59,673 nucleotides of DNA from Paramecium tetraurelia (lineage: Eukaryota), in contig CT868036.1 in assembly GCA_000165425.1 (NCBI GenBank), positions 186,001 to 245,673 of the forward strand. Direction: 5' to 3'. The number at the start of each line of letters is the position of its first letter. Position 1 is the stretch's first letter. This document shows positions 9,775 through 27,381 of the stretch, piece by piece. The position numbers and the translations under genes are program-made. The notes below the pieces were generated by a model. It saw nothing but the letters and a program-made list of their open reading frames with translations, had not been told where the DNA came from and ran no database searches.

Positions 9775-11273
9775 ATGCAATAATAATATTCTAATAGTTC
9801 AATATAGGATTTCAATATACTTGAGAAATTGGGAGAAGGCTCATTCTCTTCTGTGTATAAGGTATGATGAGAATTGATACCTTTAGGTCTAAAGAAAATC
9901 GGATGGTCAATATTATGCAATGAAGAAAGTGAATATTTCGCAATAGAGTTTGAAAGAGAGAGAAAATGCTTTGAATGAGATCAGAATATTAGCCTCACTA
10001 GATTCTCCATATATAGTAGAATTTAAGGATGCTTTTATTGATTAAGATGGAAGAATTCTTTATGTTATTATGGAGTTTGCATCTGGAGGAGACTTAAATC
10101 AAATTTTAAAGTAAGGAAAATTGTAGGGTGGAGTTTAGGAGGGTGAAATTTGGAATATATTAACATAGATCACACTTGGAGTGAAAATATTGCATGACAA
10201 TGGCATTTTACATAGAGACCTCAAATCAGCCAATGTATTTGTGTCCAAGACTCCTTAAGGAAACATTTATAAGATAGGAGATTTAAACATCAGTAAGGTA
10301 ACTCATGGGGCAAATGCAAAGACCTAGACAGGAACTCCATGTATAGATATCAATATTTATATTAGATTATGCTGCGCCTGAAATCTGGAAGGGTGAATAA
10401 TATTCATGGCCTTGTGATATTTGGTCAATTGGTTGTATTATCTATGAGTTAGCTACATTTCAACCTCCTTTCAGAGCAGGAGACCTTCTATCATTAAATA
10501 AGAAGATTTAAGCAGGTTATTATGATCCTATGCCACAAAAATACAGTTCAGATCTATCCGATGTTTTAAAGACTCTTTTACAAGTTGATCCAAAGAGTAG
10601 ACCAAATTGTGACTAAATTCTTAAGAATCCAAAGGTCATTAAGAATAGTGGATCGTTATTGGTGGAAGTGGAGTAGAATGGTGTTAAGTAAGCCAAATTA
10701 TTATAAACTATCAAACTCCCTTTTAATCTAAAGTAACTGAAGGATAATTTACCAAAATCCAAATATGAAAATAAGATGAAGAGATCAAACTCATAATAAG
10801 GACTTAAAATTGAGACTGACCATCCAATATCTTAATAACCTCGAATTAACATGGAAATATAATAACAATAATAATAACAATAATAATAATTAAGAAAAAA
10901 ATTGATCAGCGTCCCATCATAAGGTGCTCCATTAAAATGCAAACCTCCTTTGGCTAAACCTCAAATTGCCTAAGCTTAAAAAATAGAATACCATCCTTAG
11001 ACTCCATAATATTACGGATAAAAAATGTACCATCAGGATCAAAAACAGCAGTAATTAAATATTGTTAATTAAAGAATCAATGCATAATAATATTGTAAGC
11101 CAACATTTTTGAAACAGAATTACGGAATTCGAGACAATTCCCCTAGGAATCAAAATAATCCTTATTTACAATAAAGAGTAGGACAATAGCCTCAATATAA
11201 TGCTGGAAAGTAAGTACAACAAAAGAGACAGTACAGTGCAGGAATTTATGGAAGATAATAAATATATAAATGA
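9775..11273 (+). CDS. NIMA-related kinase (NEK/NRK, CNK2-like), ~482 aa, Gln-rich tail
   Basis: LGEGSFSSVYK, YAMKKV, ENALNEIRILAS, HRDLKSANVF, KIGDLNISK, QTGTPYYAAPE; two 25-nt introns. Confidence 0.93.
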
Positions 11274-13816: not shown

Positions 13817-14139
13817 TGATATTTTAATAATATAATAATTATGCTGAATATAATTTCATTACCCTGAAATTTTTATGTATTCTTCTCATTAACTTTTTGA
13901 GTGATTTGCCATTTCAAAACACTAATATTAGATGTGTAAATGCTAATTTAAACTAATGAAGCAAAAGTAAATATCAAATATAAAATTACAATAACTTGTC
14001 TTTAATTATTATATACTTTGATCTTGCCTCATATTTTTTATGAAAAAATGTAAAATTCTCCAGTTAACTGATCAATGCTCATTTTAATCGTTGATAATTT
14101 GATTTTAATGATTTAAGCAAATAAAAATTTAATAGAAAT

Positions 14140-17100
14140 ATGTAACATAATGATGACTTTGATTTTCAAGGTGGCAACTAACCATAAAGTATGTTTGAAT
14201 ATTATTTAAGTTGAACAAGACTAAAAGGATATTAAAATACAAGAGCTTAATGATGATGATGATCCAGTATTTATGATTTTGTTGGAAGAATCAAATATCA
14301 CTGATTTAGAATATGCTATACTGCTAGATGATTTATTATTTTTCAAAAGAGAAGCAAGGCTCTACAATTATATTGCCTACTTATTCTAATTGACAGAGAT
14401 AGACAAATAAAGTAGACTATTCAAAATATATTATTATTAGATGCTCCTGAGCATATTGGCTAGTTAACTAAGTTATTGAAATTGCTCTTTTAGATTCATG
14501 AGATTGGATAACATTCAGAATACACTTAAATAATAGAATAACAACATCCTTTTGGATTGTTTATAAATAGTGATCTATCTATGATAGATTTATTGAAGAA
14601 TATAATTTTAAATCAAGAAATCAATAAAAAAAAAGATGATATATTCTTTTAAATCAGAATTTATTTGCCAAGATTTTTAATATTTTCAATTAATCCTCCT
14701 AAACCATTTGTAAGTAAAAACTAAATGAAATCATTACAAAACTAGATCATTAGTAAAATCAATAATTAAGTATTTGAAACTAATAATGTGACACCATGTT
14801 AATTAGATTTGTTGGCCTTTTCTTATATTTCTGATTCCAAGTTAAATGATTAATTGTACAATGAAATAATTTTTCTCCTGAAATCAACACTTGATAGGTA
14901 TATAATATATTTAAATTATTTAGTCTTTTGGAAGCCAATAGTGCAGAACAAGGTTATAATCAAAAAATCAAAAATCTATTGGAATTTTTCTTGGTATTCA
15001 CAACAAACGAAAAAATCTTGTAATCCTTTCACTAAATTACTTTTCACACTACCCTCTATAATAGTATCAAAAATAGTTTTTCTGCCTATGGAATTGATAA
15101 TCAACCCAGTTGGTTCTAAGACCCTTTGATTATAGACTATATGGTAAACTTAATTACCAGAATTCTTAGTTCTTATTAGGATAATTAATAGTTCACTGAT
15201 ATATTGTATGAGGATTTCATAAATTGTTTGAAACACAAAGAATTGGATCTGATAACCAAAGTGATCATACCTATTTTGAATAGTCAACAAGCGCCATTAG
15301 TACTTGTATGCTTCCACCCAAAAGTAAGTGTGTAAGAGAGAAAATTACAAAGTGAACTTTTTTTAGAAAACTATTCTAAAATGATGGAGGATAGTTTAAT
15401 CGAGTAGAATGTTCAGTCATTGGAAAAGAACTATTATAAAAAATTGAATTACTATTATTCTCAATTGAGAATGTAGCCAATTCATTTTATTCCAAAAACA
15501 GAAACATTAACATAATTGAGATAATTATATGATGAAAACATAAACATTACAAATTTGAGAGAGGGTTCAATTAATGATATAGAGGTGATTAACCCTGTTA
15601 CTAAGATACTTTATCTTAACAGTAATTATTAGAAGTCATTACTGGTTTCTTTTGGAAAATCGATGGGAGGCTTTTTAAGGTTATTTGATGAGATTAAATT
15701 GTATTTAGGAGAAGATAATGTAGAGGTTAAGGAATTATTGAATGAATTGTAAATTTTTTGTTAGATTGAGGAATTTCAAGAGGATATTGTATAACTTGAG
15801 GAATTCTAAAAATATTTAATTTCATTAGTTGAAATGAACAAGAATAAAGATATTACAGAGATATATGAAAAGCTCAATTCGATGATTTATTAAAAATTAG
15901 ATCAATTTTTTAAAGAAAAACCATATCTAAAATTCATAGCTATATTGAAATATCGAATCTTTGAGTAGATAGTGATTACTGCAGAAAAATAATTGAATTA
16001 TATTAATAAGAATTAGAGGATGGATTCTGGAAATCCTAAAGATGTTGGGAATGGAAAAGATTAATAATTCTAATAATTCAAGTAGAATTAAAATTATAAA
16101 AAAGCGAAATTTGAAAATATATTAAACTGTATACTTCAATTATTAGATCAGCCAGTTAGCATAAAAATACTTTAGCGCATATAATCATCGGATGTTATAA
16201 AATTTGTCATTAAATATTTATAAAGTATCAATTTAACATCATCAAAAAGTTAAAAAACACTTGGTCAAATAGTAAAGTTAATCTATTGTTTAGCATAAAG
16301 TGAGATGACATTGAAGTTATTCATATCAAATGAGAATATATGTTTATTTAGATAAATGGAGTCATTTAATAATAAACTAATAATGCGTTTATAAGCAGGC
16401 AGTTATATATTAAATACCCATAAAGAATTTATGTAATTGTATCAATATGTGGAAGCTAGTTTATATGCTGCACGATTAATTAATATAAAATTTTTAGATT
16501 TAGACCATAAACATAAAGAGGATGCTAAATTGAGTAAGCTTTAATTGTATAGTACCTTTATGAAAATATTGGCAGTTGGAAAGTGTGAAATAAAGACTGA
16601 TGCGAAATACTTGTCTAATATGAAAGAGTATTATCAATAAACTAAAAGTCGATCAGAATATAAAATTTAAAAATTTTTGAATCAGATATCAACTATTGAA
16701 TAGAACATACCCATTTAAGCAACTAATTCCATATTCATAAGACATGATAATGCTAGAATGGATTGTATGAGAATCGTAATTTTTGGTGGCAGTGGTACAC
16801 CTTATGCGCATGGAGCATTCTTGTACGACCTATATTTTGGAAATGATTATCCAGTTAGACCTCCAAAGATTAAATTGGCAACTCCTCGACACGATAAAGT
16901 AGGATTTAATCCCAATTTATATAATTTTCGAAGAGTTTGGTTAGATTTACTTGGTACATGGGATGATAGTTGGAACGTTGATTACTCCACAATATTAGAA
17001 AAATTATTTTCGGTTAAATCTCTAGTGATGAGTGAAAATTTTATGATTAATAAACCGGAATCTTAGATGGAAACTCTTAATGTCGGATAAGCTAATAGAG

Positions 17101-20100
17101 GATATTGCAATTTCATTAAGATTAATAATATTAGATATGCGATGATAGAATAATTACAAAATCCACCCAGAGGATTTGAAGAAGTAATAAAGAAGGGTTT
17201 CTATTTGCGTAAGGAATTGATAATGAAGGAGATTGAATTATGGATAGAATAGGCCGATTTGCCAGCAACTTACAATCAAATTTAGAATGAGTAGACTTAC
17301 AACTTACAACCTTCATTCTATAAATAAGACTTGATAAAAATATATGAGGAACTGAAAGTGGAATTAGAGAAGTTGAAGTTCGATATTGAAACAGATTTCC
17401 AAGTTAATCAAAGGAAGAAAGAAATCAGTTTGAATTTCGAAACTCCTTATTCATAATAAGAATAAAAAACTAAAAAACAGATGCTCATGCCTTAAGGTTT
17501 GAATATAAATGAGATTGATGTCAATTATAATGAAAATGTATAATAAAGACAATTCGATTTAAATGATAAGAATCTACAAAATTTGATGAGTAGATACATT
17601 GCAGTTGTGGGTCTAGATGCAGTCAAGAAGCAAAGCGAATCTACTATTTTTATTCACACTTTGAATGGTTTAGGCATTGAAATAGCTAAAAATTTAATTT
17701 TATCAGGTGTAAAAAGATTGATCCTGTTTGATTCGGAACTAGCTTAGATGAGTGATTTAGGTAGCAACTTTTATTTAACAGAACAAGATTTGAAAAAGAG
17801 AAGAGATTTGAGTGTTTTAAATAAATTGAGACATTTAAATCCATATGTCTAAATAGATGTTCTCTAAAATAGTCTGGATGAATTGAATTTGGATGAAATT
17901 TAAGTATTTGTCACATAGGATCCAGATATTGCAAGTAAGGTATCAACTAATAATAAACTTGCAGTTATTTTGGCATAAACAAGAAACATTTTTGCTAGAA
18001 TTGTAACAGATTTTGGAGATGAATTTATAGTGGAAGACAAAGATGGTGAATAATCGTCAGAAGTCAATATTGAGAATATATCTAATAATGTTGTAACTTT
18101 GTTTAAGAATCAAAATCATAATCTAAGTGAAAATGACTTAGTAATTATTAAAGAGGTCAACTAAGAATAAGGCATTGGAGAGAGTTACAATTAAGTATTC
18201 AAAATAAAGAATGTTAAAACATAATCATTTGAATTAGAAACCAATAGAGTATTTAATAAGTATGTTAGTCATGGTATAGCTTATCAATAGAAATAACCTA
18301 TTAGGCTGTAATTTGATCGAATTTAAAAGGCGATTAGTTCATTCAATCATTATTGTGATAATGTTGGAATTTTTGATGGAATTGATTTAATAAAAAGAGA
18401 TATCATTCATTTCTGTTTGAATACTATTGCAAAAGATTAATTGACACATAATTGGGACATCGAAAAAATCAAAATGTTTATAACATCAATGAGATTATCA
18501 GATCTAAACTAAAAACTATATTTTAAATACAACGAATGCGTGCTTACTAAATATCAAGAAGAGTTGTTACCTTTATTTACATTATTGTCAATGAATACAT
18601 AATTCTAGCCATTATGCGCATTAGTAGGTGGAATGGCAGCATAAGAAGTTTTGAAAGCCATAAATAAAAAATATTCTCCAATCCATTAAGTTTATGTCTA
18701 ATCATTTGAAGATGTACTTCCATTTAAACTGACAGAATTCAACTTTGTTTAAGTTAGTCAACCTAACAATCTTGAAATTAATTTAAAAAAATATGAAGAA
18801 TGCATGTCGAAATTAGGATTCTAATAGAATTAAAATACAAGATATACCGATTTGGCTAACACTATAGGAAATATCAACTAAATATTTAATGCTGATGTGT
18901 TTGTCGTAGGTGCTGGAGCCATAGGGTGTGAATTACTTAAGAATTTTGCAATGTTAGGTGTTAGTAAAAATGGGAAAATATATGTAACTGATCCAGACAT
19001 CATTAAAAACTCAAATCTAGGTCGTTAATTCCTTTTTAGAGAAAAGCACATTAGGAAACCTAAAAGTGTGACAGCAGCTGCCGTTGTCAAATATATGAAT
19101 CCAGATATCAATATAGTAGCAAGATAAGATAAAGTATGCCCAGAAACTCAAGATATCTATCATACTAACTTTTACAATTAAATGAAATGTATGACTACTG
19201 CATTGGATAACGTATAGACTAGATTGTTTATGGATTCTAAATGTATTGAGAATGGAGTGCCATTAATTGAAAGTGGTACTTTTGGATCAAAAGGACATGT
19301 ACAATCCATCATACCTTATATATAAACTGAAAGATATGTAAAAAAATAAGATCCTGAAGAAATCAATGACATACCATATTGCACTTTGAAAATGTTTCCA
19401 GAATCTAATATCCATTGTTTAGAATGGGCCCGTGACAAGTTTGAATAGTACTTCTTTAGAAAACCATAAGCTTTGTTTTAATTAATATAGGATCCCTCTC
19501 CATTATAATAAACTGTAGAAATGGCCATTAAAGTGTTAAACAAATATCCTACCTCTTTTTAAGAATGTGTGATAATGGGAAGATTAAAATTCCAGAAATT
19601 ATTCAATCAGGATATAATAACTTTGACGAGTGCTTTTCCATTAAATTCTGTAACTGAAGAAGGTCAACCTTTTTGGGCTCCTCCTAAGAGATCTCCTCAA
19701 CCCATTGAATTTGGTGAAAAATTTGCATTTGAATTTGTTGAAGATTTTGCTATATTAACTGCATAAATCTACAATATTGCAATTCCCAATTAATATGATT
19801 TGAATCTCATATTATAGAATGTTCAGATTCACAAGATGGACATAAAATAAAATAAGATTCAATAGATAATTGAGATATAAGATAAAAACAATCAATTATA
19901 AAAATAGATCGTTATTGAAGTCAAAAATTATGACCAACTTATTTAAGAGGCTAAGTCATTATTAAATAAGGTTTAACCGAAATTGCCATAGCCTCAAAAA
20001 TTTGAAAAAGATAATGACACTAATCATCATGTATCTTTCATTAAAAATGCCACTAATGCTAGAGCAATAAATTATGGTATCTAAAGAGTAGATTGGATGT

Positions 20101-20666
20101 GGACCAAATTAAAAGCAGGAAGAGTAATATAATATTTTATGATCTTTCTCTAGATTATTCCAGCCATGGCAACCACAACATCGTGTATTGCAGCCTTACA
20201 GACTTTGGAATTGATTAAAATACTACAGAAATCTACTTAATATAGAAATACATTCTTAAATGCTGCCATTCCATTTATGATGCAGAGTCAACCGGGAAAA
20301 GCACAAGAAGTAATTAATTTATTTATTATTATTAGTTCAAATTGAATAATGGTTTAAGTATTTCAATTTGGAAGAAGTTGAATCTCAACATTAAGAAATT
20401 GACTGAACCATTGCAATACATAGTGTATGAAATTGAAAAGATGGTAGGAGAAGAGATAATTAATCTCCAATAAAGGGGAAAATTGTTCTATATGAAAAAG
20501 ATGATACCTAAAGATGAGATAAAAAGATATGAGTATATCAATTCTCCAATTAACAATTGCATAGAGGTAGATTTTAATAATAATTTAGTTTATTGATGGT
20601 TTATCACAAATAAATGTGTAAATAAGTAACAATATTTCGTTTTTAGTGCTAATCACTCTAGTGTGA
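14140..20666 (+). CDS. giant fusion: long N-terminal region + BIRC6/UBE2O-type E2 domain (Cys lost) + UBA1/UBA6-like E1, ~2,100 aa
   Basis: E2 (~16700-17250): [66 protein letters not shown]. Frame traced open into the E1 (from ~17586): [91 protein letters not shown]. About 5 short introns. Confidence 0.88.
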
Positions 20667-20881
20667 TTTATCTTGATTTTATGATTATATAAGTTATAAT
20701 ATAATCGTTATCTTAATTAATTGTTTTGTATCTTCTAAATTATAATGATGATTACACCCAATTTTAGGAATAAAAGAAATTAATATTGAAAGATGGAAGT
20801 TTGCAACAAATATTTGGAGTAGTCTATAAAATATATAAATAAAATCAAATATAAAATCAATATAAATCTCATAATTAATAT

Positions 20882-22376
20882 ATGTTTAGAAACAGGAAAT
20901 ACTTCTGTCAGTCCATAACATTTTACCAATAAGAACAACTACTAAACAAAGTGCTGAAGGACTGCGAAGACTGCTTCAAATAATTGGATTAACATGGAAA
21001 ATCAATAAAGAGAGATACAAAAGACATGTTCATTAAATTTACACAAGCAAAAGTATTGATTCAATCGAATCATTAGTTATAAGACCAAAAGAAATTATTA
21101 GAGACTGACTCTGTTGGTGTGTTTTAGATGCTATTGGACATTATCGAAAATGTAGCACATGATAAACCTTTGATGACATATATATTGACCACCATTGATG
21201 CAATAATATCTGGTATAATTATGTAATGAGATCATAGAGAATCAGAGATTATTCAAATAATTCATGCGAGCATTGACACCACAGGTTGTTCCTAAATTGA
21301 AATAATTCTTGTTTCTTGATGGATATGACAAAGTGGTTTATGAAGCAGCAGCTAAGATAGTCACCATGATCATAGCAGATGAAGGAGGAAATGATGCAAA
21401 AGAATGGGTCATATTATTTATTGGAGGAATAGGTATATTATAATATTAATATAGGAAATAAACTAAAGATTTCAGATTAAATGATTATGCCAATTTGTGT
21501 GCATTTTCTGAAACACGATTCATTAGCAATATAATTTATAAAGAGTGGTGGAATAAAGATGTAATAATCTTATATCTATCTCTATAGAGTATCTAATCAA
21601 TTAACCAAATATCCAACAGACTTACATATAGCTTATTATACAATTTTAGCATTATGGTTATTGAGTTTCACTAATGAATCAATTCCATTATTCAATGACC
21701 CATAAATTGGTTTGATCAGAATGATTATAGAATCAGTGTAAAAGATTTCAAGAGAAAAAATCTTGAGAGTTTCTTTTGCTTGTTTCAAGAATTTGGTTGA
21801 CGTATCAGCTTAATGCATTGAATTGATGGTTGACAATGGATTAATCAAAGTGGTTGATTTATTGTTGAAAGGAAATCTCAAGGATTAAGATTTAATAGAT
21901 GATATCAAATATGTAGGAGAGATATTGGAGAAGAACATGAAGATTTTAACGTATAGTTATAGATTAAGAATGTTAGTTCATTTGAAAAATATGTAAAGGA
22001 ATTAAATGCTCAAAATTTAACTTGGAGTCCAGTCCATACTGAGAAATTCTGGAAGGAGAATGTCAAGAAGTTTGAAGAAAATGATTTCTTACTTATTAGG
22101 TAATTAATGTATCAGTAGAGTATAGGAAATTAGCAGAAATCTTGAAATCAAATAATAATCAAAATATTGCTGTGGCTTGTTATGATTTAGGAGAGTTTTG
22201 TAGATTCCATCCATTTGGTAAAGTGTAATATAATTATATGTAAATTCATTAGTGTTTTGGAATAATTAAATGCAAAATAAGAAATTATGAAATAAGCAAG
22301 GAATGATGATTAGATGATTAGAGAAAATGCCTTGTTGTCATTACAAAAAATAATGTTGCATAATTGGTAAGTTTGA
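20882..22376 (+). CDS. ATP6V1H: V-type ATPase V1 subunit H (start approximate)
   Basis: REKILRV, LTWSPVHTEKFWKENVKKFEENDF, VACYDLGEFCRFHPFGK, RENALLSLQKIMLHNW; several short introns. Confidence 0.92.
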
Positions 22377-22433: not shown

Positions 22434-23826
22434 ATGTCTGAATAGTAATCAGGTTAAGTAATCAATTATTAGTAATTCTTTAGGATTAATTGGATGTAAC
22501 AGCAATGATGGATGAGTTGTATGACAAATTAATATTATTGAATTATGAACAAAGTTATTTAAAATAGAAGTAAGTGAAGTTCTATATTTATAACTAGAGG
22601 TGGTAAACCTTTGAATAGAGCATATTTTGTAAATCAAACTAATTCGAGTGAATAATTCAATTAATTTAAAACGTAACTTTTGAATTGTATTTGAATAGAT
22701 TAGTAAAATGGCTATTTCAATAAAACGATGTACAGACTAGTGATTTTAACAAACTTGATGATCCTGTGACTTTATCTCAGAATATAAGTAATTTCTTTAT
22801 ACATATGTAATAGTAAATGAATTGAAAAATATTGGGATCGAAGTTGACTTTCCGCCAATTAAATTAAAATAAGGATTTGGAGAATATGTTGTTTATGTGT
22901 TGCTGTAATTGGCAACCAAAGCATTGCAAAAAAAGAAATTCCAATACAAGAAAGCCAAAATTGAATAATAATCTTAAACGTAACTAATCAACCTAATCCA
23001 TTAGAAGACAAGATGATGAACCAGTCTAAGAAACAGGAAGTGTATCATCAGATTCCGATCCAGAGGTAGCATCAGAAGAAGAGCCTGAAGATGTATTTAC
23101 TGAATAGGGATTCCAAAAAGAGTAACAATATTGTTCAAATATGAAAGCGAAGACAAAATGGTTATTGAATCCAATGTAAATCCAAAGGAATGGGCAAAGG
23201 AAGTTGAAAGAGCAGCCTAGAAGATTAAAATAGTTATCAAACCAGATGCAGGAGAATGGAGATAACATTTTGATGCCACCAAATAATACTCAAACTAAAT
23301 TAAAACTATTCTCCCAGAGGCAAGAATCAAATTAGAGAGAATGGGTGATGAATTGGGAGAAATCTTGGATAGAATCACAAAAAGAGAATATAATATCAAT
23401 GAGAATATGAGTGAAATGGTAATAATCAACTTAATTCTAGAGCACTGAATTCAAAAAGAAAAATGAAGAATATAAAAAGATTGAACTCTAATATCAGAAC
23501 TACACAAATGCAAAAAAAGAAATGACTGATTAATACAAACAAATACAAGAGAAATTTGAAACTGTTCAAAACAAATTAAATGAACATGGTAGTGTCTCCA
23601 CCAATTAATCTCCAGTCATCAGTATCAAGGCTGCTCTCACTAAATTGAGAGTATCTACATCATACCTATTATTTAATAGTTAGAAATCAAATAGATGGAT
23701 CTAAGAATTGGAGTTCTATCTCACACAATCCTTCAAAGAACTTTTCATGATGCCAAAGCTATTTAAGAAAGAGACTTTCATGAACATGGACTCATCCTAA
23801 ATGAGTCTGATGAATTAACAGATTGA
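22434..23826 (+). CDS. IFT57: intraflagellar transport protein 57
   Basis: MDELYDKLILLNYE..KPLNRAYF..SEQF..DDP..DFPPIKLKQGFGEYV, W..EVERA, EWRQH, SPVISIKAALTKL..EIKQMDLRIGVLSH; multiple short introns. Confidence 0.92.
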
Positions 23827-24099
23827 AATATATATATTAATACGCCAGTCATATTATTAATTATTCTATAAATGCCATCATTGTTCAAAAAATACAATTT
23901 GGTCTAGTTGCAACCTTTATTTAACTTTTTTACTTTGTAATTTCGTCCTGGCTTAAGTACACTCGAAAAGGTTTAAAGTGCATTTGAAACTTCTATTATC
24001 TCTTTAGGATCATTCTTGGATATTTGCTGTCTATATATACATCATCTTATTATCATAAATTTAACAATAATTAAATACATAAATTTCAGTTTTATTAGG

Positions 24100-24460
24100 A
24101 TGGCAAAAGTTACCATTCAATTAAAGCAGCTCTGATACTAATTAGGAGTTAACCAAAAAGATTTGTGCAACAGAGGTAGGAAAAGAATTAATTTAAACTC
24201 AATGATGTGTAAGAATACGCAAAACACTAAAAACAAAAAGGCTATGAGCTGAGTCACTACTACTGAAAAACAAAAACCCTAATAAGTTGAAGATGACGAT
24301 CAAAGCTAGGAAGAAATCCTTAATAAAATCCAAGAAGATGGTTTAATAAGAAAAGTAATATAAGCTATAGCAAAGTTGATGCAACTTAAAAGCTGCAGAA
24401 AATGCTATAATTTCTGTTGTTTATTGCAATAAATACAGTAAATTGAAAATTGTAATTTTT
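24100..24460 (+). pseudogene. probable decayed gene fragment
   Basis: Coding-like run VTTTEKQKPQQVEDDDQSQEEILNKIQEDG preceded by an in-frame TGA; no intact model. Confidence 0.25.
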
Positions 24461-25094: not shown

Positions 25095-27175
25095 TCATTT
25101 CTTACGAGATGTTTCAGATTGCATAGTTCCTTGTTTTCTGATCTGAGGACTTGATTTTTATTGTGGTTGTTGGGATGAAACTTTCTTATTGGTGGGTGAA
25201 GAAGATTAATTCAATTACAATTCATTTGATGGTTTAATTAAACACCTAGGATGGTGTACCCAAAGTAAGTATAGTTATTCAAAGAAATCCTCATTTGATA
25301 CTACTTCTTCTTGTTTCTTATTTATCATCGATCTTTAATGAGTAATTATCAATTACCAGATCTAATATGAATAACAACTAAATACCAAAAATACATCGAT
25401 ATTGTAGAATGGTTCAACTGTGTCTAGCCGATAACTAAATTTATTGATGTTGCTCAAATAAAACTTAGAGAAGGAATTCCATTTCAGTCTCTCCTGTTAT
25501 TAGAGGAATACAATAGCTAGGTATGTGAAATTTATCAGTCTGATATTGGATTGAGATGAAGATTCTACATATTCATATAATTATTGAGGCAAGATGGTTG
25601 AATAACTACAGTTTATAGAACATAATTAGAATACTTTGCTAAATTAATTTCTAATTCAAAATCGATTGAACTTGATTATTTGAGAAATAAGCTCGATCTT
25701 TATTAATTTTAATTAGGGGATGTTTACTACAAAAAGGTTAGTTCTATAATTTTGATATATCTGAGGGTTTCTTCTATCATCTTGTGAGATAGAGGATATT
25801 ATGAATTGATACCAAGGATTTATTAACACACATTGATGTAATAGTCATTATTGTTATTTTGATTCAATTTATTCAACAATTCTATTCTACTATTGACAAA
25901 TTGTTATTCATCAGCATGAATCCATAAGGAAAAGAGTTCAGGGCCTGATTGTGAGGAATAAAAGTTGAGATTTTGGAATAGAAACTAAAGAAAATCACTT
26001 GCTAGTTATTTCTTGTTGAATTGATCAACATGATAAAACTCAATTTCAATTTAGGATATTAATGGATTGACCATCAATTCAATACAAGGTTTTTATTCTT
26101 TAAAACTGATGTTCAATTGCTCATATTTTTATTGTACAAATGATTTTGGCAGTATGGGTTTGATTGTCAACAATTTAGCTAGTTACTTAATAGAAGTTGA
26201 TGCTTATTAATGAGATTCATAGATTTCCTTATTGAATCTCATGAAGTTTAAGTCCATTTCATGTAATTTTTGATTGATATTTTGGAGATCTCCTTTGGCA
26301 TGTTCAATATTACTAAGTTCGTTCATTTGATCTTCTAAATTGTTATATTGTTGACACATCTTGTTGTTCTCTTCTCTTAATGCCATATTCTTCTTTTATT
26401 CAATTACAAGTTTTAATTAATATGCTCGTAACTGCATTTGATACTTTTCTTCCAATTATTTATATTCACTTTTCATTTATTCCAATCTCTCCTTATAGCT
26501 TTCAATCTACTCATTGACTAGTGATTAAAAACGATCTTATTGCCATTGAGTATTCAAATCTAAGATGATCACTATGGCTTTCCAAATTTATTCAATAAAT
26601 ATTGCAATAGCTTTGTCATCTATGGTCTTTAAAATGCTAGATACTATTTCATTAAGTATTTCAATGCATTTAATTTGAACATCAAATCTAAAGTGATGTT
26701 TAGGATGTTGTTTGTTAAGATCTGAGTTATCCAATTATTATTTTTTATCGAAAAGATCCTAAATGATAGTTTGATCTAAGTTTATTAGAGTCTCATACAT
26801 ACGAAACAACAATTTAGGATCTTTAACCTAAAATGAATATTATTAAGGAAGTTCTTAAACTTAGATAAAATTATACTGTAAATATTTCCTTACCTCTCGA
26901 GACACATGTTTTAAAGTGGAAACAACAGTCTAATGATTCTTGATTAAGTAACCTTCTTCTAAGTATTTCTCGATTATCTTTAAGGGAACATTTGATTTCT
27001 CTGGAATAACAGGTATAACAGATTCTAAGATGAATGCTAAGGGACTTTGATTGAGAGTTTTGTAGTTCGATTTAGATCTGGACTGTGAACTGGTTATTCT
27101 GCTTACTGAAGGTTTTATGGAGGATGAAATAACCCTTCTGTGAGCAGATAAACTGTGTATATTATGTTTATTCAT
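25095..27175 (-). CDS. coiled-coil protein of unknown function
   Basis: ATG 27175, long frame with heptad-like region (ERLEQMKVEYKQLEEKYQMQL..LREENNKM), intron near 26828-26860, TGA 25095-25097. Confidence 0.8.
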
Positions 27176-27381
27176 TTAGATTAAGTAATTTAATTATTAA
27201 ATAAATTCATAAGAAGGTGTTAGAAGTTCTGTTATAAATTCCTCAAATAAAACCCATTTTAATTCTCTATCGATTGATTCCACTCCATTTCAGTAAGTGA
27301 TATTATGTTCTGCTAATCATTTGTTGAGTAGAATAAAAATACTAATAATAAAATTATTTTATAAATTCAGAGAAGGTAATA

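Follow-up and report, generated by a model that had tools for sequence, protein, structure and literature searches.

A Paramecium tetraurelia gene joining a BIRC6-type UBC domain, without its catalytic cysteine, to a UBA6-type E1

We analyzed a 59,673-nt stretch of the Paramecium tetraurelia genome (GenBank assembly GCA_000165425.1, contig CT868036.1, positions 186,001 to 245,673 of the forward strand), here called the window, with positions counted from its first letter. One expressed gene on its plus strand, at 14140-20666, encodes a single protein that begins with a predicted BIRC6-like helical arm and continues through a UBC domain of BIRC6 type and a flexible linker to a complete ubiquitin-activating enzyme (E1) of UBA6 type. 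An initial annotation, made from the DNA letters, had placed a UBC domain, a linker, and an E1 in one gene, and this observation is confirmed. That annotation had overlooked the replacement of the catalytic Cys of the ubiquitin-conjugating enzyme (E2) by Trp. The best reading of the gene, to which we assign a probability of roughly 0.55, is a selected E1 tethered to a pseudo-E2. The features of the gene are given below; where a basis for the assignment applies, it follows in brackets.

14140-20666, plus strand: whole gene (spliced translation and a 100% match to the annotated protein P0002)
14140-14188, 14211-14411, 14441-14897, 14924-20123, 20154-20309, 20336-20566, 20589-20666, plus strand: exons
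14898-14923, plus strand: 26-nt intron (exactly 26 nt absent from contig 1 of RNA run X3, 14815-15881)
14189-14210, 14412-14440, 20124-20153 (in frame), 20310-20335, 20567-20588, plus strand: other introns (GT..AG ends, frame restoration, annotated protein)
14140-16517, plus strand: N-terminal arm, P0002 residues 1-767, mostly helical repeat (resembles the C-terminal arm of BIRC6)
about 15387, plus strand: point where a 220-265-aa segment of the relatives is missing (tblastn, alignment gaps)
16518-17264, plus strand: BIRC6-type UBC domain and its C-terminal helical extension, with a degenerate active site (phmmer against the BIRC6 UBC domain, E 1.9e-43)
16938-16940, plus strand: Trp codon TGG at the position of the E2 catalytic Cys, within a 15-residue stretch at 16908-16952 (BIRC6 alignment, codon read)
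17265-17582, plus strand: linker between the UBC extension and the E1, ~105 aa, Q/K/E/N-rich (between the ends of the BIRC6 and UBA6 alignments)
17583-20666, plus strand: complete UBA6-type E1, including the inactive adenylation domain (Pfam, UBA6 alignment, trees)
18081-18293, plus strand: FCCH (Pfam E1_FCCH)
18909-18926, plus strand: GAGAIG of the active adenylation domain
18990-19031, plus strand: adenylation motif of 14 residues in the active adenylation domain
19200-19211, plus strand: ALDN of the active adenylation domain
19371-19391, plus strand: IPYCTLK
19380-19382, plus strand: E1 catalytic Cys, TGC within IPYCTLK (aligns to IPFCTLK of UBA6)
19398-20108, plus strand: SCCH (Pfam UBA_E1_SCCH)
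about 20290-20663, plus strand: probable UFD, across two introns (UBA6 alignment)

Gene structure

Under the ciliate code, in which TAA and TAG specify Gln and TGA is the stop codon, a single plus-strand frame is open from 14895 to 20345 (1816 aa). Within the long exon, the 1733 codons of 14925-20123 contain no in-frame TGA, while the other two frames contain 58 and 74. Across short, AT-rich GT..AG introns typical of Paramecium, the frame continues in both directions to 14140-20666, yielding seven exons and a protein of 2123 aa; all six introns keep their GT..AG ends and restore the frame. The spliced translation is 100% identical to P0002, a protein already annotated in P. tetraurelia under the database name "UBC core domain-containing protein". 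The initial annotation had delimited the gene at exactly these coordinates and had described a frame running without TGA from the UBC domain through the linker into the E1, both of which are borne out by the spliced model. In the window sequence, no stop, frame change, or AT-rich gap of intergenic type lies between the UBC and E1 parts.

UBC domain and loss of the E2 cysteine

The best solved-structure match of the UBC domain is BIRC6 (E 1.9e-43), over ~250 residues corresponding to residues 4528-4781 of the BIRC6 chain, and UBE2Z and UBE2O match at ~1e-16 to 1e-17. The domain had been called BIRC6/UBE2O-type, which these matches refine to BIRC6-type (UBE2O, ~1e-16). Pfam UQ_con scores 44.5 bits at 16746-17009, above its cut-off of 27, and 64-85 bits in eight relatives; by this score and the BIRC6 match, the UBC core fold appears recognizable from the sequence. 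The HPN-type motif is kept as FNPNLY, as in BIRC6 and the entire fused family described below. The catalytic Cys is missing: in a residue-by-residue alignment, the Trp of RRVWLDLL faces the Cys of GKVCLSIL in BIRC6. A second Cys of this loop, present in relatives as NCGKVC, is Phe in P0002, which leaves the active-site loop without any Cys, and the family-invariant neighbors of the E2 Cys (GK and S) are changed as well. By motif scan, GKVCLSLL is kept by all 70 other fusion homologues scanned, and Trp occurs in the window protein only.

A sequencing or assembly error at the Trp codon was considered and rejected, because TGG at 16938-16940 is unchanged in contigs obtained from two further runs, X3 (16047-17226) and X4 (16433-17226). 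Pfam UEV gave no score on the window protein at E 0.01 or better. Because Trp occupies the position of the E2 Cys, the UBC domain of P0002 cannot carry a thioester, and we read it, from its residues, as a pseudo-E2 of the UEV kind. The working single-chain E2-E1 module of the initial annotation fails for this copy at the same residues, the Cys and the adjoining GK and S.

E1 part

The Pfam scan suggested alongside the initial annotation returned the UQ_con, ThiF, and UBA_E1_SCCH matches expected there, and E1_FCCH in addition. On the E1 part, ThiF matches in two stretches at 219 bits, E1_FCCH scores 46.5 bits, and UBA_E1_SCCH scores 198 bits. UBA6 is the best solved-structure match for this part (E 4.8e-136). 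With phmmer, the spliced P0002 scores 494 bits against UBA6, 475 against Drosophila UBA1, and 466 against yeast Uba1; the alignment runs to residue 2076 of P0002 and covers residues 43-997 of the 1052 of UBA6, reaching into the UFD. What had been described as a complete UBA1-like E1 is complete, as the Pfam scan and the UBA6 alignment agree, and trees place it with UBA6 rather than UBA1. GAGAIG, ALDN, and the catalytic Cys of IPYCTLK (TGC, 19380-19382) lie where the initial annotation had put them. The hallmarks of E1 activity are kept, namely GAGAIG, the Arg of SNLxRQ (here SNLGRQ), the Asp of ALDN, and the Cys of PYCTLK, and the window protein is probably an active UBA6-type E1.

The closest relatives carry the adenylation motif DPDIIENSNLSRQ. 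P0002 departs from the family at two of its residues, with Glu replaced by Lys and Ser/Asn/Thr by Gly. The alteration that the initial annotation had noticed in this motif is therefore real, but its use as a sign of a non-canonical modifier is disfavored, because the change fits better as one of 22 near-invariant changes in a fast-evolving paralogue.

Pfam E1_UFD gave no score on P0003, on P0006, or on P0001, an unspliced version from which most of the UFD is absent; the spliced P0002 was not scanned with this model. Other fused relatives (P0010, P0012, P0021, and P0062) score weakly, at 16-28 bits. Across the fused family, the C-terminal 100 aa thus give a weak or absent E1_UFD match, yet phmmer aligns the region to the UFD of UBA6. 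That relaxed UFD conservation would fit a tethered E2 is only an idea.

Fusion family in ciliates

A word-indexed search with residues 540-1000 gave 146 significant proteins, and the following counts refer to the best 120 of these. Both domains of the fusion (PF00179 for UBC and PF00899 for ThiF) are present in 71 of the 120, P0002 included, and every fusion carrier with an organism name among them is a ciliate: four Paramecium species with several paralogues each, Tetrahymena malaccensis, Ichthyophthirius, and Pseudocohnilembus. Further fusions come from an MMETSP transcriptome labeled "Platy...", a transcriptome row with the prefix GILK01 (P0039), and metagenome proteins. The Ichthyophthirius fused protein is annotated as "ubiquitin-like modifier activating enzyme 6, putative". 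A HMMER search of 1.84 billion cluster representatives found seven full-length fused proteins and two partial or ambiguous fusion matches (P0241 and P0173) among the best 150, the rest being plain E1s. The motif scan found NPNLY..GKVCLSLL together with the E1 motifs in 70/70 other fused homologues. The fusion had been proposed as lineage-specific; it is instead a ciliate-wide family, of which the window copy is a degenerate member. Descent in the trees and the order of UBC then E1 place the window copy in the family, but its E2 Cys is lost.

The phylogeny against UBA1 and UBA6 that had been suggested earlier was built from the E1 parts, and the fused E1s side with the UBA6 type with a support of 100. 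A FastTree analysis of 97 E1 parts unites 20 fused sequences in one group (support 100); these and 10 others, including P0105, form a 30-row group (support 100), and the other 67 rows include P0101. A quick IQ-TREE analysis of 41 rows separates 12 fused and 9 UBA6-like sequences from 20 UBA1-like sequences (SH-aLRT 100). The labels rest on P0105, which is vertebrate UBA6 (a 1626-bit match), P0133, a member of the same 30-row group that scores best on UBA6, and P0101, which is UBA1. P0014, a less derived relative, matches UBA6 at 653 bits, no UBA1 at more than 602, and the UBC domain of BIRC6 at 235 bits. The assignment of the fused E1s to the UBA6 type rather than UBA1 is well supported but not final, because the trees are unrooted and most rows are without taxon names. 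The initial annotation had noted that UBA6 charges BIRC6, a link made apt by the grouping of the E1 part with UBA6. As a whole, the family resembles a fusion in which a UBA6-type E1 follows the C-terminal third of a BIRC6-like protein.

Shorter relatives of ~1430 aa were also seen (L001, a compost metagenome contig, and L004, L006, L007, and L009), with UBC-E1 frames of 1388-1431 codons. These frames contain no TAA, TAG, or TGA and no introns, at a GC content of 0.33-0.46; the absence of TAA and TAG indicates that their owners do not read these codons as Gln in the manner of Paramecium. In L001 (1-5796), a 5'-open frame of 489 aa lies just upstream in the same reading frame, separated by TGA at 1468-1470 plus 30 nt, and matches the Tetrahymena arm weakly (E 3e-6). 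The short UBC-E1 forms probably have an arm too, and the single TGA in L001 could be a read-through or recoding site, an error, or the boundary of two genes. A cathepsin L-like gene adjoins the L001 fusion frame. Among the proteins noted individually (P0062, P0076-P0078, and P0082), the Pseudocohnilembus fused protein has an N-terminal PP2C phosphatase domain (225 bits). Unfused UBC proteins with NPNLY..GKVCLSLL carry SPRY in P0076 and PF10408 in P0077, P0078 (Ulva), and P0082.

Relaxation and constraint in the window copy

In P. octaurelia, the sister of the window gene is represented in the annotation by two proteins. P0009 (1146 aa) runs collinearly with P0002 residues 1-1108 and is 60% identical to them, and P0074 (999 aa) corresponds to P0002 residues 1124-2123 at 82% identity. 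P0009 ends in the linker and P0074 begins at MSRY, which also stands in the linker of the window gene; this split at the E2-E1 linker may be a gene fission or an annotation artefact. IQ-TREE joins the window protein with the P. octaurelia pair, at 100/100 in the tree of the E1 part and 99/99 in that of the UBC part. They fall, in the former tree, inside a group formed by P0003 (P. octaurelia), P0004 (P. pentaurelia), and P0005 (P. sonneborni), a position that the UBC tree leaves unresolved. P. tetraurelia itself also has an intact paralogue, P0006. End branches are 0.29 for the UBC part and 0.11 for the E1 part of the window protein, versus 0.03-0.04 and 0.04, respectively, in the nearest intact copies. 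We rejected the interpretation of P0003-P0005 as orthologues with an acceleration specific to P. tetraurelia, since P0009 and P0074 are the sister and share the deletion in the arm. The acceleration lies in a sublineage of two species, comprising the P. tetraurelia copy and its P. octaurelia orthologue.

In the alignment from the UBC domain to the end, 224 columns are near-invariant, defined as at least 97% conserved among the 70 other fused proteins. The window protein is changed in 22 of these, compared with a family median of 1 and with 1-2 in the other Paramecium copies. Thirteen of the changes fall among the 61 UBC columns, one is a gap just after the UBC domain, and eight fall in the E1:

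UBC domain: E823Q, L831I, T890P, G891R, R896G, G905R, K906R, C908W, S910D, Q928E, Q934K, V942F, E946K
Gap after the UBC domain: N1024
E1: G1129A, E1597K, N1661T, A1668T, S1709K, Y1807F, L2006A, E2015Q

Similar or higher counts occur in P0024 (1202 aa, 44 changes) and P0073 (18 changes), which may be incomplete. The P. octaurelia orthologue is changed in 7/61 UBC columns and 7/162 E1 columns, and five positions are common to both species. It keeps the E2 Cys and has lost the Asn of the HPN-type motif, NPN, to Lys (FNPKLY). Since the hits differ between the two species, the constraint on E2 catalysis would have been relaxed in their common ancestor and the site disabled separately in each.

Rates of change were compared between columns that are at least 95% conserved and variable columns:

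Window protein versus P0003-P0005, E1: conserved 14/200 (0.07), variable 0.22
Window protein versus P0003-P0005, UBC: conserved 14/68 (0.21), variable 0.24-0.38
P. tetraurelia versus P. octaurelia, E1: conserved 0.09, variable 0.23-0.31
P. tetraurelia versus P. octaurelia, UBC: conserved 0.26, variable 0.47-0.62
Intact P0003 versus P0004, UBC: conserved 0/70, variable 0.12-0.19
Intact P0003 versus P0004, E1: conserved 2/202, variable 0.14-0.20

These rates suggest that the E1 part is clearly constrained and still under purifying selection, weaker than in the intact copies. The UBC domain of the window copy would retain structural constraint at most.

Transcription

RNA data comprised two raw stranded oligo-dT runs (X22 and X23) and two contig runs (X3 and X4). 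Oligo-dT RNA covers 14134-20900 at 0.4-4.4 fold, in the sole orientation expected of plus-strand RNA. The X3 contig without the 26-nt intron at 14898-14923 shows that this run holds spliced RNA. This is the one intron demonstrated directly, by a contig, and the other five are inferred; the raw reads, at low depth, gave no splice joints at the threshold used. The X3 contig at 16047-17226 spans the UBC core, and the X4 contig at 16433-17226 overlaps the same region. X3 contig 3 (17214-18065) contains the end of the UBC extension, the entire linker, and the first ~160 aa of the E1, and X4 contigs 12 and 13 likewise cover the linker. Contigs of both X3 and X4 stop at 20120, adjoining the intron that starts at 20124. 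The whole gene is not spanned by any single contig, and a contig is no proof of one transcript. The claim of one gene nevertheless holds up, with a single frame and an RNA-derived contig (17214-18065) that bridges the linker into the E1.

Reads of X22 and X23 carry fixed variant letters at 16567 and 16589 and loose ends at 16555 and 16603, and variant letters also occur in RNA reads at 17196 and 17244. RNA reads that leave the window sequence at 16926 continue with letters translating to GKVCLSL, an intact E2 site. The variant letters and loose ends across 16555-17244 are best explained by reads of an intact paralogue that partly cross-map, and part of the RNA depth over the UBC domain is therefore foreign to this gene. 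RNA editing was rejected for the variants at 16567, 16589, 17196, and 17244, as the loose end at 16926 spells the intact paralogue site. At 19760, T>A is found in all covering reads of X22 and X23 and is absent from the contig runs; it may be a strain difference.

N-terminal arm

The initial annotation had described an N-terminal arm of ~850 aa, in keeping with the ~843 aa that precede the Pfam UQ_con match; counted to where the BIRC6 UBC alignment begins, the arm is 767 aa long. Pfam found no family in the arm of the window protein or of eight relatives, and no BIR domain matched these nine proteins at E 0.1 or better. For 14925-16520, an AlphaFold model computed with 11 homologues is mostly helical (pLDDT 70.8). 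Its top eight Foldseek matches are all BIRC6 (best E 1.7e-5), one of the entries being titled "C-terminal arm of BIRC6", in a type of comparison where helical repeats inflate the scores. The modeled arm resembles human BIRC6 residues 3642-4502, which directly precede its UBC domain. Because the arm is collinear with that of BIRC6 and adjoins a UBC domain whose homology is evident from its sequence, common descent is the simplest reading of the modeled resemblance. The initial annotation had suggested that the arm could recruit substrates or partners; it is no unknown recruiting arm, its modeled fold matching the C-terminal arm of BIRC6.

A segment of the arm is present in P0003, P0004, P0005, the second Paramecium group (P0006-P0008), Tetrahymena, and Ichthyophthirius and has no counterpart in the window protein. 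It comprises residues 417-679 of P0003, 408-630 of P0006, 471-702 of Tetrahymena P0012, and 372-591 of Ichthyophthirius P0021, and its deletion is common to the window protein and P. octaurelia P0009. Modeled from P0005, the segment forms a beta sandwich at low confidence (pLDDT 64.4), whose 11 best Foldseek matches are all TLDc domains (NCOA7, OXR, and TBC1D24; E 3e-4, TM 0.53-0.58 on the target). A TLDc-like identity, which would be unexpected inside a BIRC6-like arm, is only a lead from this model. TLDc domains are known as V-ATPase binders. A protein-atlas comparison of the segment gave SPRY and Neuralized only as leads, at scores (0.79) of noise level; the fold search pointed to TLDc instead.

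Proposed function and alternative explanations

In intact members of the family, the E1 would adenylate ubiquitin, take it onto its own Cys, and hand it in cis to the Cys of the tethered E2, with the BIRC6-like arm presenting substrates. The lineage of the window copy and its P. octaurelia orthologue would then have lost the arm segment and the constraint on the E2 active site. The window protein would still activate ubiquitin as an E1, and the dead E2 with the shortened arm may serve as a docking or regulatory module; the dead E2 could occupy the E2-binding site of its own E1 or pair with an intact paralogue. Several points weigh against a selected E1 of this kind. The role of the dead module is putative, E1 activity is deduced from motifs only, and eight near-invariant E1 positions are changed, including E1597K in the adenylation motif. 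Expression is low (175 and 74 reads placed from ~19 and ~22 million records), and part of the reads over the gene derive from a paralogue. Acceleration, deletion, active-site loss, and low expression would also fit a duplicate heading for loss.

Such a duplicate in early decay, transcribed and with an open frame but without a selected function while the intact paralogues do the work, is the main rival, and we consider it possible though rather unlikely. It would account for the long branches (UBC 0.29 versus 0.03-0.04, E1 0.11 versus 0.04), the loss of the E2 Cys and the changes in 22 near-invariant columns, the deletion of a conserved 220-265-aa arm segment, the low RNA depth, and the presence of intact P0006 in the same species; the P. 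octaurelia orthologue, without the NPN Asn and annotated as two proteins split at the linker, fits it as well. Decay is harder to reconcile with the reading frame. There are 329 codons one step away from TGA, so that 5-16 stops would be expected under neutrality at 0.05-0.15 changes per site, an expectation that uses assumed divergences in place of a measured synonymous rate and is in that respect a further weakness of the selected reading; the observed number is 0 in 2123 codons. The six introns keep their GT..AG ends and restore the frame, and long frames are kept in both species after their split (1146 and 999 aa in P. octaurelia). Conserved E1 columns change ~3x less often than variable ones, and conserved and variable UBC columns are still ~two-fold apart between P. 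tetraurelia and P. octaurelia. The same E1 constraint bears on the proposal that no part of the protein is catalytic and that it acts as a scaffold or decoy, binding ubiquitin, E2s, or the partners of the intact paralogues but activating no ubiquitin. The eight near-invariant E1 changes, which include the adenylation Glu to Lys and two residues flanking ALDN, and the retention of pseudo-E2 and arm as an open frame would suit it. A pure scaffold would not need GAGAIG, the SNLxRQ Arg, the ALDN Asp, or the catalytic Cys, all of which are kept, and it is precisely at the E1 columns invariant in the family that constraint is strongest; we judge this proposal improbable.

The active single-chain E2-E1 relay that had been envisaged for this copy, possibly for a non-canonical modifier, has in its favor the intact architecture, a recognizable UBC fold (E 1.9e-43), and the retention of both cysteines by the family as a whole. 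The window copy itself has Trp for the E2 Cys and Phe for the second Cys in a loop now free of Cys, with TGG confirmed in contigs of two other runs and 13/61 near-invariant UBC columns changed, and an active relay is very hard to credit here. A gene-model artefact, in which a gene for the arm and E2 and a gene for the E1 were read together because TGA is rare, would agree with the annotation of the P. octaurelia orthologue as P0009, ending in the linker, and P0074, starting at MSRY. It conflicts with the absence of a stop, frame change, or AT-rich intergenic-type gap between the parts, with the RNA-derived contig across 17214-18065, with the 71/120 listed homologues that have both domains in one protein in many organisms, and with metagenome relatives whose UBC and E1 share one frame without any stop codon. 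An artefact is accordingly given very little weight, and a selected E1 tethered to a pseudo-E2 stays the preferred reading.

A broader proposal, which we hold only tentatively, combines a ciliate single-chain ubiquitylation machine, an ancient UBA6-BIRC6 pairing, and the window gene as a selected pseudoenzyme with a dead-E2 decoy. If it were true, the exclusive UBA6-BIRC6 partnership known from mammals would be older than animals, stemming from an ancestor shared by ciliates and animals or from an early transfer, and an active E1 would carry a dead-E2 decoy by which the flow of ubiquitin is gated or rerouted toward the intact paralogues.

Relation to known systems and significance

UBA6, but not UBA1, charges BIRC6, according to PMC12999496 and PMC13623948. 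The ciliate proteins resemble this dedicated mammalian pair in that the window UBC domain is nearest to that of BIRC6 and the window E1 is nearest to UBA6; they differ in being one polypeptide in the order arm-E2-E1. Compared with BIRC6, no BIR domain was found with Pfam, the rest of the large BIRC6 N-terminal part not having been searched for, and the window copy has Trp for the E2 Cys. BIRC6 and UBE2O are E2/E3 hybrids that likewise join a large non-catalytic region to a UBC domain of the same subfamily, but they are without an E1 and their active Cys is present. UEV proteins (Mms2/UEV1 and TSG101) have a UBC fold without the catalytic Cys and act by binding, not catalysis. The window UBC domain is like them in its missing Cys and unlike them as a recently disabled BIRC6-type UBC, outside the UEV family and covalently tied to an E1.

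Cap2 of bacterial CBASS systems has a simple ThiF/MoeB-like E1, not known to include FCCH, SCCH, or UFD, and conjugates cGAS-like enzymes. It shares with the ciliate proteins the presence of E1 and E2 modules in one chain; it would be an independent invention, the ciliate proteins being built from canonical eukaryotic UBA6-type and BIRC6-type parts. Cap2-type E1-E2 fusions work in cis, as stated in the available text of PMC10097602 and 10.1101/2022.03.31.486616.

A search of the full-text literature, with subscription journals mostly outside it, returned papers on bacterial E1-E2 fusions and no published description of a eukaryotic or ciliate E2-E1 fusion; earlier comparative studies of how E1 and E2 domains are arranged may mention one. 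In the available portion of PMC12999496, the words ciliate, Tetrahymena, Paramecium, and fused are absent, and "fusion" appears in two cited titles only; PMC13159474, as far as its text is available, treats BIRC6 within animals only. Public databases already contain the fusion proteins with annotated domains, and the sequence itself is not new.

The main interest lies at the family level, where the UBA6-BIRC6 pair occurs naturally fused in organisms other than animals. Recent structural papers ask why BIRC6 is charged only by UBA6, and the conserved occurrence in nature of a BIRC6-type arm and UBC domain joined to a UBA6-type E1 would be independent evolutionary evidence that the two work jointly. 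Placing UBA6-type E1s in ciliates would give them a wider distribution than the accessible part of PMC11864663 states, and the fusion family offers a compact model for E1-to-E2 transfer in cis. The window gene is a clear case of an enzyme module disabled within a multi-domain protein whose remainder appears to be under selection, with disabling hits that differ between sister species (Cys to Trp in P. tetraurelia, Asn to Lys in P. octaurelia). It should help in tracing how gene copies left by the Paramecium genome duplications come to be lost or repurposed.

Neighboring genes

None of the four frames noted around the gene is linked to the ubiquitin system. On the plus strand, these match a protein kinase (10185-11273), V-ATPase subunit H (21370-22185), and IFT57 (23411-24205); the fourth, a minus-strand frame at 25535-27289, has a weak COG5 match that falls below the Pfam cut-off.

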